DNA of 64,000 nt, from positions 103,866 to 167,865 of IMG/VR virus record IMGVR_UViG_3300050034_000187; one strand, written 5' to 3'. Of this stretch, positions 17,831-39,696 are shown in pieces. Below the pieces are notes generated by a model that worked only from the letters and a program-made list of their open reading frames with translations, searched no databases and had not been told where the DNA came from. The translations under genes were made by a program, and so were the position numbers. The first letter of the stretch is position 1; the number at the start of each line of letters is the position of its first letter. This DNA comes from a virus.

Positions 17831-18733
17831 ATGGGAAAGACAAATTGGGGAGTTGTAATCGGACGATTTCAGTTGGATAATCTGACAGAAGCGCATAAGC
17901 TTCTTCTAGCAAAGGTTTCATCAAAGCATCCTCGGGTGGTTGTATTTATTGGAGTGCGGGCAGGTTGTTCAACTTCAAATGACCCTTTGGATTATGCAAC
18001 CCGAGAGAAGATGATTCGAGCAGAAGTTCCGAATGCTATTATCTCTCCACTTCGAGACGAGAAGTATGATGAGGATTGGTCACGTAATCTTGACAATAAG
18101 ATTCTTGAAATTACAGGATCAATTCCCGCAGATATTACTCTTTATGGTGGCAGGGATAGTTTTGCAACAAGTTATCTTGGACGATTTTCCGTAAAGGAAT
18201 TGGAGCTTGAAGTACCCATTGAAATTTCTGCAAGTAAGGTTCGAGCATTCATCACAGACAATGTGATGAGTTCAAGTGATTTTCGAGCAGGGGCAATTTA
18301 TGCTCTTCAGCAAAATTTTCCGAAGGTTTATACCACGGTTGATATTGCGCCAATTCACGGTGATGAAATTCTGCTAGGAAAGAAGAAGATGGATCGTGGT
18401 TGGCGCTTTCCGGGCGGATTTGTAGAAGTTCAAAGTGAAGATAGCTCTCTTGAAGAAAATGCTAAGCGAGAACTTCAAGAAGAGACTGCGTTGAGCGTTA
18501 GTTCTATCCATTATATTACTTCTCATGTGATAAATGATTGGCGATATAAGGGAAGTCCAGATAATATTATGACAACCTTTTTTCTTGCTCATACTACCGA
18601 TCTTGCTGCAAGGGCCTCCGATGATCTTGATTCTGTGAAGTGGTTCAAGCTTGCTGATGTAAATGAAGATATGTTCGAAGGGGAACATGCGCAACTTTGG
18701 AAGGCTCTGAAAAGTTATTTGGATAAGGAGTAA
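17831..18733 (+). CDS. nadM: Bifunctional NMN adenylyltransferase/Nudix ADP-ribose pyrophosphatase
   Basis: IGRFQ..TEAH, NDPLDYATR, ISASKVR, TTVD, FPGGFV and RELQEET. Confidence 0.9.
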   Translation: MGKTNWGVVIGRFQLDNLTEAHKLLLAKVSSKHPRVVVFIGVRAGCSTSNDPLDYATREKMIRAEVPNAIISPLRDEKYDEDWSRNLDNKILEITGSIPADITLYGGRDSFATSYLGRFSVKELELEVPIEISASKVRAFITDNVMSSSDFRAGAIYALQQNFPKVYTTVDIAPIHGDEILLGKKKMDRGWRFPGGFVEVQSEDSSLEENAKRELQEETALSVSSIHYITSHVINDWRYKGSPDNIMTTFFLAHTTDLAARASDDLDSVKWFKLADVNEDMFEGEHAQLWKALKSYLDKE

Positions 18734-19201: not shown

Positions 19202-19447
19202 ATGAATCTATTCAAGAAAACTATTACCAAGATTTGCGGAGATTACAAACGAGTGCATAAGTGTACTCGTTGTGGCGCGGTAAATGCTAATTTAACCATA
19301 GATATTTGCTGGTCCTGTGGTAGCAATAGTAATTATTTTGTTGATACGGTTGCTCGGCATGTTACCGAATCTGTCTATGAATGGTGGAAGCCATTTTCTT
19401 ATTCTTCTGGAGAATATTATTGGGAAGAATCTCCATATCAAGATTAA
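19202..19447 (+). CDS. Small zinc-ribbon protein
   Basis: CTRCG ... CWSCG; GGAGG RBS. Confidence 0.65.
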   Translation: MNLFKKTITKICGDYKRVHKCTRCGAVNANLTIDICWSCGSNSNYFVDTVARHVTESVYEWWKPFSYSSGEYYWEESPYQD

Positions 19448-19494
19448 TTGCACGCAAAATATGTGCTATAATTAATAATGAAAAGGAGAAATAT

Positions 19495-20919
19495 ATGGGG
19501 CAGGACTTGGTAATTAACAATTTGGATTTGGTGGATTCTTACAAGGATACGCAATTTTCAATGTATCCGACGGGTGTGGAAACAATTTATGATTATTTCG
19601 AACCTCGCGGCGGAATTTATCCATACACTTGTTTATTTGGTTTGCAGTATATTTTGAAGCGATATCTAGCGGGGGAGTTTGTAACTCAGAATATGTTGAA
19701 TGAGCAAATTGCGATGGTAATGCCGAATCATATGGGTCCACAATTTAAGTACAATGTTGCAGGATGGCAATATCTTATTGATGAATACGGCGGGCGTCTT
19801 CCAGTTAAGATTCGGGCAGTTCAAGAAGGTATTCCAATTCCAGTTAAGAATATTGTGTTAGATATTGAAAATACTGGGGGAAATAAGACTGCGTGGATTC
19901 CCAACTTTTTAGAAACAATAATTCAGCAATCATGGTACGGTTCAAGCGTTTTTTCTACCAGTCGCATAATTAAGGAAACAATTCATAATGCTCTGGTAAA
20001 GTCTTCAGAAAGTATTAATGGAGAATATCCTTCTCTTCCTTTTCAGTTGCATGATTTCGGTTTTCGCGGAGTTAGTTCAGTAGAATCATCTGCAATTGGG
20101 GGAGCGGCCCATCTTTGCAATTTTCTAGGGACTGATAATAAGATTGCAATGAGTTTTCTCCATCAGTATTATAATGCTCCATATGGATGTGGAAAGAGCG
20201 TGGTTGCTTCCGAGCATTCCGTGATGGAATTTTCTCTCGGAGAAGAAAATGAAGCGGAAACCGTTTCAAGAATTTTGGATGAGAATCCTATTGGAATTGT
20301 TTCTATTGTTGGGGATACCTATAATATTTTTAAGTTTGCCGATAATATTATTGGTAAAGAATTACATGATAAGATTATGAATCGTCCCGATGGAAGTAAG
20401 GTTGTAATTCGGCCAGATTCTGGTGAGCCTACGGAGATTGTTTTGTATGTTCTGAATTCTCTTGCAAATAGCTTTGGATATACCGTGAATTCGCTTGGCT
20501 ATAAGGTTCTTAATCCACATGTTGGCGTTATTCAGGGTGATGGTATGACTCCTTCATCTATTAAGGAATTGTTTGATGTAATTCTTACGCAGGGGTGGTC
20601 TGCGGAAAATGTTCTCACTGGTTCTGGCGGTGGGTTGCTTCAACGCATTAATAGAGATAGTCAAAAGTTCGCTATTAAGGCATCTGCTGCGATTGTTGAT
20701 GGAAAGGTGCTCGAACTATTTAAAGATCCTATTACTGATCCGGGCAAGAAGAGCAAACGAGGATTTCATTCATTGGTGTTTCGAAATGGAAGTTATCAGA
20801 CCATTAATCGAGGCCACGATGAAATTGTTCCCGATGATCTGCTTGAACCTGTATTCGAAAATGGAGAAATTCTTCGTGATCTTTCATGGGATACCATTTG
20901 CAAGAATGCCGCACTTTAA
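19495..20919 (+). CDS. nadV: Nicotinamide phosphoribosyltransferase (NAMPT)
   Basis: DSYK, LHDFGFRG, ASEHSV, VIRPDSG, IQGDG and GSGGGLLQ. Confidence 0.95.
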   Translation: MGQDLVINNLDLVDSYKDTQFSMYPTGVETIYDYFEPRGGIYPYTCLFGLQYILKRYLAGEFVTQNMLNEQIAMVMPNHMGPQFKYNVAGWQYLIDEYGGRLPVKIRAVQEGIPIPVKNIVLDIENTGGNKTAWIPNFLETIIQQSWYGSSVFSTSRIIKETIHNALVKSSESINGEYPSLPFQLHDFGFRGVSSVESSAIGGAAHLCNFLGTDNKIAMSFLHQYYNAPYGCGKSVVASEHSVMEFSLGEENEAETVSRILDENPIGIVSIVGDTYNIFKFADNIIGKELHDKIMNRPDGSKVVIRPDSGEPTEIVLYVLNSLANSFGYTVNSLGYKVLNPHVGVIQGDGMTPSSIKELFDVILTQGWSAENVLTGSGGGLLQRINRDSQKFAIKASAAIVDGKVLELFKDPITDPGKKSKRGFHSLVFRNGSYQTINRGHDEIVPDDLLEPVFENGEILRDLSWDTICKNAAL

Positions 20920-32921: not shown

Positions 32922-33548
32922 ATGTTTGATTCAGCAAAATACGAAGCCAGTCTAAAGGCAATGCCAGATTTGATGGAATTGGATTTTGATTTGGATAAAA
33001 CCGAATACTGCACCTTGGATGAAGCCAGAGATTGGTGCAAAGAAAATGGAATTAATAGTCAGTCAAAATATCGAGAAGTGGTAACTGGTGGAGTATATAA
33101 TTCCGATGGAAAGAAATTACCAAGCGCTCCAAGTAGGTATTATAAAATTTTATGGAGTAAATTTTTTGGAAAAGAAGAACGGTATACTGGAGACTATACT
33201 TCTTTAGAAGAATGTAAAAATTGGTGCAAGGAAAATGAAATTAATACCAGAGAAAAATACCGAGAAGTGGTAAATGGTGGAGTATATAATTCGGATGGAA
33301 AGAAACTACCCGGAGGTCCAAATAAGAAATATAAAATTTCATGGAATGAATTTTTTGAGAAATCTGAATATTGTTCTTTGGATGAAGCAAGGGATTGGTG
33401 CAAACTAAATGTAATTAACTCGGTGGACAAATACGATAAAGCAGTAAATGGCGGTGTGTATAATTCCAATGGTAAGAAATTACCGAGTCATCCATATCAA
33501 AAATATAAAAATACTGGTTGGGTTTCGTGGCCAGATTTATGGAAATAA
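32922..33548 (+). CDS. Protein of three integrase-repeat-like units
   Basis: 3 x YCxLDEARDWC..I.S..KY...KLPSxP..YK..W. Confidence 0.75.
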   Translation: MFDSAKYEASLKAMPDLMELDFDLDKTEYCTLDEARDWCKENGINSQSKYREVVTGGVYNSDGKKLPSAPSRYYKILWSKFFGKEERYTGDYTSLEECKNWCKENEINTREKYREVVNGGVYNSDGKKLPGGPNKKYKISWNEFFEKSEYCSLDEARDWCKLNVINSVDKYDKAVNGGVYNSNGKKLPSHPYQKYKNTGWVSWPDLWK

Positions 33549-33678: not shown

Positions 33679-34473
33679 ATGTTTATCGAATCTATTAAGC
33701 GAGAATTTTCAAATGGCGTAGTTTATGCAATGAAAACCGAGGATGGCTATCCTATTGAAACAACGGATACTTTCCTGCCGTATTATACCAAATTTGCAAT
33801 TAATGAGCATACCAATAAGTTGAAGTCCGATGATGTTGGATCACGCAAAGAGCGTTGGATGATTGGTGTTAGTTGCATGTCATCGTGCCCCGTTCACTGC
33901 CGTTTTTGCGCCACTGGCCAGTTGAAGCGTACTCGAAAGCTTTCTGCTCAGGAAATTGTTGATCAAGTTAAGTTCATTCTTGTGAAGAATCATGATTTAA
34001 CTCCAAGTGATTCTAAGGAATTTAAAATCAATTATACTAGGTGCGGCGAACCATTCCTAAACATTGAAGCTGTGAAGGAAGCTATTCGCAGCATTGATGC
34101 AATGCTTCCGGGGGTACGCGTGCATCATTATATTTCTACTATTGGTTTAAGGGGAATGGATACCTCATGGATTAAGGATAATATCACTCTTCAGCTATCT
34201 CTACATAGCACCGATGAAATCCGGCGGAATGATCTTATTCCAGTATCCAATTTAATGAGTATTGAAGAGTTGGGAAAAGTTCGCACGGAAAGCGAATTGA
34301 AGACCACTATTAATATGACTCTGGTCGATACAGCGGACTTTAATATTGATGTGATCAAAAAGAATTTTGACCCGGATTACTTTTTTATAAAAATTTCTCC
34401 AATTAACGTTAACTCGGTGAGTGAAGCAAATCATATGGGGGCTGGAATTATCAAGGCAGTTAATTTGATTTAA
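33679..34473 (+). CDS. RlmN/Cfr-like radical SAM enzyme lacking the C-terminal AACGQL segment
   Basis: IET, CPVHCRFCATG, LSAQEIVDQV, GEPFLN, ISTIG and LSLHS..RNDLIP. Confidence 0.85.
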   Translation: MFIESIKREFSNGVVYAMKTEDGYPIETTDTFLPYYTKFAINEHTNKLKSDDVGSRKERWMIGVSCMSSCPVHCRFCATGQLKRTRKLSAQEIVDQVKFILVKNHDLTPSDSKEFKINYTRCGEPFLNIEAVKEAIRSIDAMLPGVRVHHYISTIGLRGMDTSWIKDNITLQLSLHSTDEIRRNDLIPVSNLMSIEELGKVRTESELKTTINMTLVDTADFNIDVIKKNFDPDYFFIKISPINVNSVSEANHMGAGIIKAVNLI

Positions 34474-34485
34474 GAAAGGGAACTG

Positions 34486-34686
34486 ATGAAATATTGGCAG
34501 AAGATGACTTTGTATATTGTAATGATGGTTGGTGGACTGCTGGGTGGTGCAATTTTGCAGGACAACGAACACTCATCATTTTTTGAACATAATAAGAATC
34601 TTAATGATGTATTGATTTCATTGTGCGGTTTCAGCACCGTGATTGGAATTATATTGGGCATCGAAACAATTAAGGAAACAGATTAA
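34486..34686 (+). CDS. Small membrane protein
   Basis: Two hydrophobic helices; paralog of 34889-35083. Confidence 0.6.
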   Translation: MKYWQKMTLYIVMMVGGLLGGAILQDNEHSSFFEHNKNLNDVLISLCGFSTVIGIILGIETIKETD

Positions 34687-34888
34687 TCATTGAAATTTAA
34701 ATAACGCATTGACCAATTATGACCATTCAAAGAATAAGATCCTTGCTATAATTATAATCATTGAAGGTTGATTATTAATATATAGAAGGGAGGTTGCCTG
34801 ATATCGACGTATGGCTGGCTTAATATAAATTACTTGTTAAGCAGATTTTATTGGATACCGCATAAAAGTTTCACGCGGAGGAAAATAT

Positions 34889-35083
34889 ATGAGAGTTTGG
34901 CAAAAAATTGTTCTTTGCATTATAATAGCAGGTGGAGTTTTTGGTGGAGCTAGATTAGAAGATCGGGATCACAATCCACTGTATGAATATTATAATAATG
35001 TTCATGATAAACTAGAAAGAGTATCTATTGTTCTTTCTGTTTCTGGTACAAAACGATTTCGGAACTATCAGTTTAAAAAATAA
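34889..35083 (+). CDS. Small membrane protein
   Basis: WQK....GG..GGA.L pattern shared with 34486. Confidence 0.55.
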   Translation: MRVWQKIVLCIIIAGGVFGGARLEDRDHNPLYEYYNNVHDKLERVSIVLSVSGTKRFRNYQFKK

Positions 35084-35087
35084 ATCC

Positions 35088-35116
35088 TTGCATTTTTAAT
35101 TAATTCAATGTAGTAT
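35088..35116 (+). promoter_or_regulatory. sigma70 promoter of the AACGQL peptide gene
   Basis: TTGCAT-N17-TAGTAT. Confidence 0.6.
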
Positions 35117-35138
35117 TAACCAATAAGGAGAACAAACA

Positions 35139-35279
35139 ATGGAAAGTGTAATTGAGAAGTTGAAGGATGCTGGTTATGATTATGCTGTTGCAATTTCAAC
35201 AGAAAGCGAACAAAAGGCGAATGCCGCGTGCGGCCAGCTAAGTCTTGTTGTTGAACTAGATACGCAGGAGAATAGCTAA
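35139..35279 (+). CDS. 46-aa peptide matching the RlmN/Cfr C-terminal catalytic segment (absent from the ORF track)
   Basis: MESVIEKLKDAGYDYAVAISTESEQKANAACGQLSLVVELDTQENS; own promoter, AAGGAG RBS and downstream hairpin. Confidence 0.85.
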   Translation: MESVIEKLKDAGYDYAVAISTESEQKANAACGQLSLVVELDTQENS

Positions 35280-35295
35280 TATTTGGCTGTTATTT

Positions 35296-35337
35296 AAAAT
35301 TCCTCTATTATATTAATCTATGGTAGAGGAATTTTTA
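35296..35337 (+). terminator. Hairpin after the peptide gene
   Basis: AAAATTCCTCTA ... TAGAGGAATTTT inverted repeat. Confidence 0.55.
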
Positions 35338-37267: not shown

Positions 37268-37531
37268 ATGATTGATTCAGCCAAAGACGAAGCCATTCTC
37301 AAGGCAATGCCAGATTTGATGGAACTGGATTTTGATTTGGATAAAACCGAATACTGTTCTTTGGAAGAAGCGCGAGATTGGTGCAAATTAAATGAAATTA
37401 GTACTCAAGTCAGATATAACAAATCAGTTTTCGGTGGAGTATATAATTCTGACGGAAAGAAGCTTCCGAGTAGTCCCAATAGGCAGTATAAAAATTCTGG
37501 TTGGGTTTCGTGGACAGAGTTATGGAAATAA
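37268..37531 (+). CDS. Single integrase-repeat-like unit protein, recent paralog of 32922
   Basis: Near-identical DNA including the upstream TATAATATATCT. Confidence 0.75.
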   Translation: MIDSAKDEAILKAMPDLMELDFDLDKTEYCSLEEARDWCKLNEISTQVRYNKSVFGGVYNSDGKKLPSSPNRQYKNSGWVSWTELWK

Positions 37532-39303: not shown

Positions 39304-39696
39304 ATGGCTAAGAGCAAGAATTTCGTAACATTTTCAGAGTTTCAAGAGTTTGCAAAGGCACAAAACATTCACAGCGTAACCGAGTTTCAAGCATTTCGCA
39401 AGGCAAATCCATCCTTCGCCCAAGGTGAAAAGAGCATTCCATCAAACCCACAGGTTGCTTATAATACCTCGTGGGCGGTTCTGTTGGGAAAGACTCCCCG
39501 CACAACTTATGGTAAGAATTTTGTTACCGTGGATGAATTTAAGCAATTCCTTGCTGAGAAGAGTATTAAGACCTCAACCGAATTTGTTAAGTTTTATCAT
39601 ACAGCAGAGACTCGCCCGACCTTTGCAGAAAAGGATATTCCATCGAATCCAACACACACTTTAAAGACAAATTGGAAGAGTCTTCTTTCAGCATAA
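39304..39696 (+). CDS. Protein of two integrase-repeat-like units
   Basis: 2 x KNFVT..EF..F.....I....EF...IPSNP......W..LL. Confidence 0.7.
   Translation: MAKSKNFVTFSEFQEFAKAQNIHSVTEFQAFRKANPSFAQGEKSIPSNPQVAYNTSWAVLLGKTPRTTYGKNFVTVDEFKQFLAEKSIKTSTEFVKFYHTAETRPTFAEKDIPSNPTHTLKTNWKSLLSA

Follow-up and report, generated by a model that had tools for sequence, protein, structure and literature searches.

A phage RlmN-like radical SAM enzyme that lacks the second cysteine and has its carrier cysteine encoded by a separate small gene

We analysed a stretch of 64,000 nucleotides (the window; positions 103,866 to 167,865) of the virus record IMGVR_UViG_3300050034_000187, which is 195,761 bp long and estimated to be 53% complete. 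The subject of this report is a pair of open reading frames (ORFs) on one strand, 665 nt apart and separated by two small ORFs, as the initial annotation of the window had described (Table 1). The first encodes an RlmN-like radical S-adenosylmethionine (SAM) enzyme and the second a short peptide that bears the carrier cysteine. The textbook examples of class A radical SAM methylases, RlmN and Cfr, are held to need both of their cysteines. The pair is a real and apparently undescribed variant of this class, in which the second cysteine is missing and the carrier cysteine sits on a separate gene product. Full-text literature searches, which had most subscription papers outside their scope, returned no description of a split natural form or of one lacking the second cysteine.

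The best family match of the enzyme is RlmN (TIGR00048; E 2.6e-17, with 62.8 bits where the cut-off is 290), and the Cfr models TIGR04432 and NF000424 score 50-53 bits against cut-offs of 530-550. When the AlphaFold model of the enzyme (mean predicted local distance difference test, pLDDT, of 83) was searched with Foldseek, the top 11 matches were all RlmN or Cfr; a search of the ESM Atlas gave generic radical SAM clusters only, and none of the plasmid records reached 80% coverage of the enzyme. The RlmN cluster motif and SAM-binding motifs are present, and E27 aligns with E105 of E. coli RlmN (reference from NC_000913.3, residue numbering checked). The N-terminal helical domain is absent: 69 residues precede the first cluster cysteine compared with 124 in RlmN, and the alignment starts at RlmN residue 79. 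At the other end the last strand of the model spans residues 235-241, and the RlmN columns for the final helix, strand and carrier cysteine (C355) are gaps in 19 of 19 split rows. The enzyme thus ends before the last helix and strand, as had been proposed, and the carrier cysteine is found only on the separate peptide.

The position of the second, resolving cysteine of RlmN (C118) is occupied by G63, in agreement with the earlier view that no cysteine stands there. We assembled 121 loci (80 from IMG/VR, 31 from GTDB, 9 from GenBank phages, and the window), of which 117 are of the Gly type; the set is redundant, forming 46 clusters at 85% identity with 52 members in the largest. Glycine occupies the C118 position in 117/117 Gly-type loci and in 119 of the best 120 homologues. 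The nearby C66 was considered as a substitute resolving cysteine and ruled out because it aligns with S121 of RlmN and the residue varies (C 96, V 14 and T 10 among 120 homologues).

The 46-residue ORF supplies the segment that the enzyme lacks. Its product aligns with residues 328-360 of E. coli RlmN, including C355, with a probability of 40.5% (E 3e-4) and the need for a gap; its alignment with the tail of one-piece enzymes lacking C118 is gapless, with a probability of 92.9%. On its own, the peptide gave no informative match in Pfam, in PHROGs or among solved sequences. Close peptide pairs differ by 6,003 synonymous and 1,492 non-synonymous codon changes, and the changes counted at codon positions 1, 2 and 3 number 1,113, 664 and 6,993; the peptide is under purifying selection. 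A model of the enzyme/peptide complex scored 0.76, compared with 0.02 for the best control, the mark applied being reached by 116 of 157 solved pairs and by 2 of 215 mismatched pairs. The runs agree on at least 79% of contacts, with a partner pLDDT of 64 or more. In this model the peptide makes about 170 contacts; its residues 13-16 form a strand paired with enzyme residues 235-239, and its cysteine loop reaches into the active site. The peptide is therefore predicted to be the missing barrel strand and cysteine loop of the enzyme, as the initial annotation had supposed. Binding is in this sense modelled, and since intact RlmN has already been solved, the pass may reflect likeness to RlmN.

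Table 1. Features of the split enzyme locus and its context (window coordinates).
Feature	Position	Strand	Remark
RlmN-like radical SAM enzyme body, 264 residues	33679..34473	+	lacks N-terminal helical domain and final helix, strand and Cys loop
E27	33757..33759	+	equivalent of RlmN E105, kept in all groups (alignment)
G63	33865..33867	+	at position of RlmN resolving Cys118 (alignment)
CxxxCxxC [4Fe-4S] motif (C70, C74, C77)	33886..33909	+	alignment
R121 and C122	34039..34044	+	R121 clade-diagnostic (RlmN G177); C122 peculiar to window copy (alignment)
K238	34390..34392	+	clade-diagnostic (RlmN N307); on strand predicted to pair with peptide
Small hydrophobic ORF 1, 66 residues	34486..34686	+	inserted cargo
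Small hydrophobic ORF 2, 64 residues	34889..35083	+	paralogue of ORF 1
Promoter-like element (-35, 17 nt spacer, -10)	35087..35116	+	upstream of peptide gene; weak evidence
Shine-Dalgarno AAGGAG	35125..35130	+	8 nt 5' of peptide start
Peptide subunit, 46 residues	35139..35279	+	helix, strand, carrier-Cys loop
Peptide E24	35208..35210	+	invariant
Peptide C31	35229..35231	+	equivalent of RlmN C355
17-bp hairpin	35296..35335	+	3' of peptide gene; putative terminator or stabiliser
NadM-Nudix-like NMN adenylyltransferase	17831..18733	+	NARP2-like; context, outside split gene
Nampt-family phosphoribosyltransferase	19381..20919	+	NARP2-like; context, about 13-14 kb upstream of enzyme

The expression signals ascribed to the peptide gene fared unequally. 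The ribosome-binding site was located, and the hairpin is borne out by shuffling (z -6.3, matched by 0 of 200 shuffles), though a terminator scan of the window did not call it. A promoter of its own is only plausible: the -35/-10-like element was found with a pattern chosen after the element had been viewed, and a consensus scan, which returned 8 sites against 9.9 expected, did not list it. The two small hydrophobic ORFs are paralogues (42% over 43 residues), one with two hydrophobic stretches and the other with one. Both are absent from the rest of the source record and from all fetched loci, and they were ruled out as parts of the system. Proteins built of similar repeats, encoded at 32922-33548 (directly upstream of the enzyme), 37268-37531 and 39304-39696, flank the locus; two of the three show a weak INT_rpt match. 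The source record holds no further copy of the peptide gene.

The initial annotation had proposed a check for both ORFs in other phages, and they do co-occur there. A separate peptide ORF lies downstream of the enzyme in 113 of the 117 Gly-type loci; the four exceptions are a peptide 5.6 kb away, an enzyme 724 nt from the contig end, a broken enzyme and a record without a peptide. In loci found by searching with the peptide, the enzyme is upstream in 79 of 80 (near-copies included), the exception being at a contig edge. Taken with the conservation of the peptide and the docking model, this near-obligate pairing argues that the peptide is a part of the enzyme encoded in trans. There are 1,906 homologues with E of 0.001 or lower, not all of them split; the best 120 are 261-279 residues long and none has the tail motif. 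The gap between the genes ranges from 2 to 2,673 nt, falls in all three frames (61/37/15) and does not exceed 60 nt in 43 of 113 loci. Ordinary genes make up the inserts, and an Rfam search found no intron family. Phages at 33-68% identity share the split. Five cultured phages carry the split form: the crAss-like phage 'tikkala' (OQ198717), Moorella MTATph1, Yersinia P778, Pectobacterium Wc4 and Vibrio D479. The split is a family-wide trait.

Several further observations were made in the family. Near the cluster motif, 21 of 73 longer homologues (P0350-P0370, P0194, L111:143-1765) carry an intein, many with a LAGLIDADG domain, which suggests that the gene is under strong selection. Two large-phage loci (L006:7925-8764 and L056) have a second RlmN-like gene less than 4 kb from the split one; that of L006 is in one piece and keeps C118. 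In a Gly-type sister group (P0252, P0263, P0266 and eight more) the protein stops past the last strand, without the carrier-cysteine motif, which reflects either another split point or loss of the carrier; a viral scan for this group found no loci.

Enzymes without C118 also occur in one piece. A tree of 128 rows, from which six long or chimeric rows and all rows below 225 residues were left out, separates a branch of 54 rows (53 with C118) from one of 74 rows without any C118 (Shimodaira-Hasegawa-like approximate likelihood ratio test, 99). Among the rows of the branch without C118 are many one-piece enzymes with the carrier cysteine retained. In Versailles-type loci threonine stands at the 118 position in 48 of 48 scored (of 50), with the tail cysteine on the same chain in 46; in cellular-type metagenome loci C118 is absent in 80/80 and a glutamate lies seven residues before the carrier cysteine (-7) in 79/79. 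The residues R177, Q231, K274, N278 and K307 (RlmN numbering) are common to the one-piece group (24 rows) and the split group (19 rows). All 113 peptides and 22 of 25 one-piece rows have the glutamate at -7, compared with glycine in 35 of 47 enzymes that keep C118. Because the one-piece relatives share the new residues, this glutamate and the gapless tail, loss of C118 with rebuilding of the pocket probably came first and the split later. The tail is also borne by 72 longer proteins; of the 34 of these that were inspected, most are products of fusion with a neighbouring gene. One, P0188, is a re-fused form, a clean Gly-type enzyme in one piece that branches within the split group; P0213 is a permuted re-fused form with the tail at its N-terminus.

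The cellular one-piece relatives (L366-L445) are found beside a TrxB-like reductase in 67 of 80 loci and an isochorismatase-family hydrolase in 38 of 80, sometimes fused. Hydrolase, one-piece C118-less enzyme and reductase form a conserved cellular three-gene unit, and the literature search found no study of such enzymes. The layout reads as that of a small-molecule pathway. A separate phage clade (L117, L118, L120, L364, L365, P0257) is in one piece and without the N-terminal domain, and keeps C118; in L120 the gene adjoins a Nampt-family gene, and P0257 is fused to a Nudix domain.

The neighbours of the split enzyme include genes of nicotinamide adenine dinucleotide (NAD) metabolism. A NARP2-like gene pair (Nampt and Nmnat) is present in the window. 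Across the family, 10 of 42 clusters have Nampt within the fetched flanks of 4-6 kb per side, and NadM-Nudix, nicotinamidase-like and NAD kinase genes recur. In records holding both genes Nampt lies within 7 kb of the enzyme in 13 of 19 (3.2 expected); for records above 100 kb the count is 7 of 11, compared with 2 of 26 for control genes (thymidylate synthases ThyX and ThyA 1/18, PhoH 1/8; Fisher p 9e-4), the 7-kb cut-off having been set after the distances were viewed and the records not being phylogenetically independent. Replacement of thymidylate synthase, hinted at by ThyX beside the peptide gene in one Moorella phage, was ruled out: ThyX is present in 14 and ThyA in 9 of 48 records, with 2 of 22 within 7 kb, and the source record itself has ThyX.

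A second radical SAM gene and a small methyltransferase gene are optional companions, often placed between the enzyme and peptide genes. Loci found by searching with the methyltransferase contain the enzyme in 55 of 61 cases and those found with the second radical SAM gene in 19 of 37 (near-copies included), so these accessory genes depend on the split system. A role as obligatory resolvers of an adduct was ruled out, the methyltransferase being present in 5 of 35 records searched. None of three accessory families was found in the source record, which is about 53% complete. We note that in several loci (e.g. L074:4683-5015) small proteins with a cysteine-rich tail precede the accessory radical SAM gene.

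We tentatively propose, as quite possible though short of probable, that the two-gene enzyme assembles, methylates Cys31 of the peptide, reuses the peptide, and acts on a small nucleotide of the NAD pathway and not on rRNA or tRNA. Body and cysteine-bearing tail would form a heterodimer with a single barrel, as the model predicts. By analogy with RlmN chemistry, SAM would methylate Cys31, and a second SAM would convert the methyl group into a methylene radical that adds to the substrate. In RlmN and Cfr, according to two reports (PMC9692996; 10.64898/2026.02.27.707579), the second cysteine takes the C2 or C8 proton, and mutants without it stay crosslinked. Judging from the relatives, the adduct of the split enzyme may be released by a rebuilt pocket comprising R121, K208 and K238, with Glu24 of the peptide as the candidate base and the peptide being reused. 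Cfr residues 8 to 11 before the carrier cysteine line the target nucleotide (10.64898/2026.02.27.707579), so, by residue counting, the new glutamate would lie beside the target-nucleotide site. From the new arginine and lysine residues, the ligand may carry a phosphate or a carboxylate. Judged by the neighbouring genes, the substrate would be NAD+, nicotinamide mononucleotide (NMN) or an ADP-ribose-type molecule, and the reaction may help the phage against NAD-directed immunity.

A number of points weigh against this proposal. The choice of Glu24 as base is a guess, and the one-piece relatives could be single-turnover enzymes themselves. With the trait columns removed, the clade that unites split and one-piece C118-less enzymes, as a single origin of the C118 loss would require, has a support of 93/83, and the alternative is not rejected (approximately unbiased test, p 0.18); loss before split is then favoured but short of proven. 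Absence of the N-terminal domain is shared by 28 of 53 rows that keep C118. Nampt is found in only 4 of 17 near-complete IMG/VR records with the split enzyme, and the window pair itself is about 13-14 kb from the enzyme. Of ten loci found with the Nampt of the window phage, none holds the enzyme within up to 10 kb; the split enzyme is not an obligatory NARP2 component, and most carriers are without Nampt. The one-piece C118-less relatives do not lie beside Nampt, and their hydrolase is RutB/BiuH-like and not a nicotinamidase. The Nampt link could reflect a general clustering of counter-defence genes.

The initial annotation saw the peptide as a co-substrate that acts in trans and is possibly consumed. 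The trans-encoded part of that claim stands; the consumable part, together with the attachment of the peptide to RNA or DNA, is weakened by the one-piece C118-less relatives, the residues they share with the split enzyme, and the re-fused forms. As a rival to reuse of the peptide, the Cys-CH2-substrate adduct would be the end product, and the peptide would leave bound to a nucleotide or nucleic acid and be replaced, an outcome that we consider unlikely. Equally doubtful to us is the corollary that the split turned a suicide enzyme into a catalyst with a cheap co-substrate. The glycine at C118 throughout the loci fits consumption, as do the RlmN C118A and Cfr C105A mutants, which are reported to stay crosslinked (PMC9692996; 10.64898/2026.02.27.707579). 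The peptide gene of Vibrio phage D479 (L116:5800-6078) has two tandem carrier-cysteine cores, and of 37 clusters, 24 have a stronger Shine-Dalgarno sequence on the peptide gene than on the enzyme gene and 11 a weaker one (p 0.01, with a best-of-candidates scoring that biases the result). The gene may lie up to 5.6 kb from the enzyme and appears fused to unrelated proteins, and the second radical SAM enzyme and methyltransferase encoded between the genes could process an adduct. Against this, one-piece C118-less enzymes occur widely, in metabolic operons that include a reductase, the re-fused forms P0188 and P0213 exist, and among the 30 split records that match the peptide, 29 do so only once. 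A barrel strand with the predicted number of contacts would also be expected to exchange slowly. In the form of a disposable covalent trap, the peptide would be joined by a radical C-C bond to an NAD-derived nucleotide or a nucleic-acid adenine and a fresh peptide would then be taken up; we think this improbable. If true, it would amount to a natural radical SAM peptide-nucleotide ligase for counter-defence, for example against an ADP-ribose-type immune signal.

It is likewise not probable, in our estimate, that the pair is a two-subunit nucleic-acid methylase making 2- or 8-methyladenine in tRNA, rRNA or phage DNA, with another base replacing C118. The closest fold and families are those of RlmN and Cfr, E105 and the cluster and SAM-binding motifs are kept, the pocket is still basic, and one one-piece phage relative, also without the N-terminal domain, lies among tRNA genes. 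An RNA target is nevertheless disfavoured: the N-terminal domain, which grips the RNA backbone in Cfr (10.64898/2026.02.27.707579), and the tail arginines of RlmN are absent, and the neighbours point to NAD metabolism. The source record, about 53% complete, contains no tRNA genes, and among the most frequent protein neighbours (a scoring of protein genes) there is no tRNA- or DNA-modification gene.

Rather less credible is the view that the family is real and the window copy decaying or shifted in function. Of 119 conserved positions the window enzyme deviates at 6, where the median is 1 and the maximum 7. Its C122 replaces the methionine of the MGEP motif, and a serine (33883-33885) replaces the glycine before the first cluster cysteine, both original residues being kept in 119 of 119 other homologues; the extra cysteine lies by the active site and reflects either decay or an adaptation private to this copy. 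In the peptide, Ser at -11 and Gln at -6 are each the only such case among 113 peptides, and two foreign ORFs are inserted. On the other side, the frames are intact, E27, the cluster cysteines, R121, K238, peptide E24 and C31 are present, and the Shine-Dalgarno sequence is strong. The copy has all the marks of the C118-less subfamily: G63, R121, Q172, K208, N212, K238 and peptide E24. We give next to no credence to a recently broken gene, or to halves rejoined by splicing or ribosomal recoding. The short gaps and the apparently genuine one-piece P0188 would fit. Against them, P0188 branches from within the split group, phages at 33-68% identity have the split in common, and relatives do not as a rule carry one intact gene; recent breakage is rejected. 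Splicing and recoding are rejected as well, given gaps in every frame (down to 2 nt), inserts made up of ordinary genes and an Rfam search without an intron hit.

The system is thus a large natural phage family, carried by a cultured crAss-like phage among others, in which one cysteine has been dropped and the other placed on an exchangeable peptide. Either the adduct is released by a new route, which would offer a direct test of the accepted mechanism, or nature has here a ligase that joins a peptide to a nucleotide. The association with NAD salvage genes suggests that the contest between phage and host over NAD includes a new reaction. The two-part design eases experiments, as the peptide can be synthesised, pre-methylated and mutated.

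Compared with RlmN (TIGR00048; PDB 3RFA, 4PL1, 5HR6/5HR7, 6FZ6), the split enzyme has the same fold, CxxxCxxC motif, E105, G179-E180, S211, S233-H235, R242, N312 and carrier-cysteine motif. It differs in having that cysteine on a separate gene product, glycine for C118 and no N-terminal helical domain, in the changes M176T, G177R and N307K, in the loss of the tail arginines, in the glutamate at -7 with a two-residue insert, and in a score far below the family cut-off. With Cfr (the 23S rRNA A2503 C8 methylase; TIGR04432, NF000424; PDB 9P0P) it shares the fold and, by descent, the carrier-cysteine chemistry; it has no equivalent of C105 and no HhH2 RNA-binding domain, and it falls outside the RlmN/Cfr clade in both trees. 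Nothing points to a resistance gene. The resemblance to NARP2 (phage Nampt and Nmnat; Osterman et al., 10.1101/2024.02.11.579819) lies in the NARP2-like genes of the window and the enrichment of Nampt beside the split enzyme. NARP2 is defined by two salvage enzymes, and the accessible text of that paper contains neither RlmN nor methyltransferase; RlmN likewise does not occur in the accessible part of the NARP3 paper (PMC13464706).

The split family belongs with the wider C118-less group with a rebuilt pocket. One-piece members of that group (Versailles type, phrog_24834, and cellular type) also lack C118, have R177, Q231, K274, N278, K307 and the glutamate at -7, and align with the peptide without a gap in the tail; they differ in being a single chain, in carrying I, M, L, V or T at position 118 and in having no Nampt neighbours. 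Carrier or suicide co-substrate systems are otherwise known from the ThiS/MoaD sulfur carriers, THI4, the pearlin scaffold peptides and the precursors of ribosomally synthesised and post-translationally modified peptides (RiPPs). The present system is like these in its small cysteine-bearing peptide partner, the two-core peptide of one phage and the accessory radical SAM and methyltransferase genes. A RiPP precursor, however, is unrelated to the fold of its maturase and has a leader and a core, whereas the split peptide is homologous to the C-terminus of the one-piece enzymes and is the enzyme's own C-terminal structural segment.

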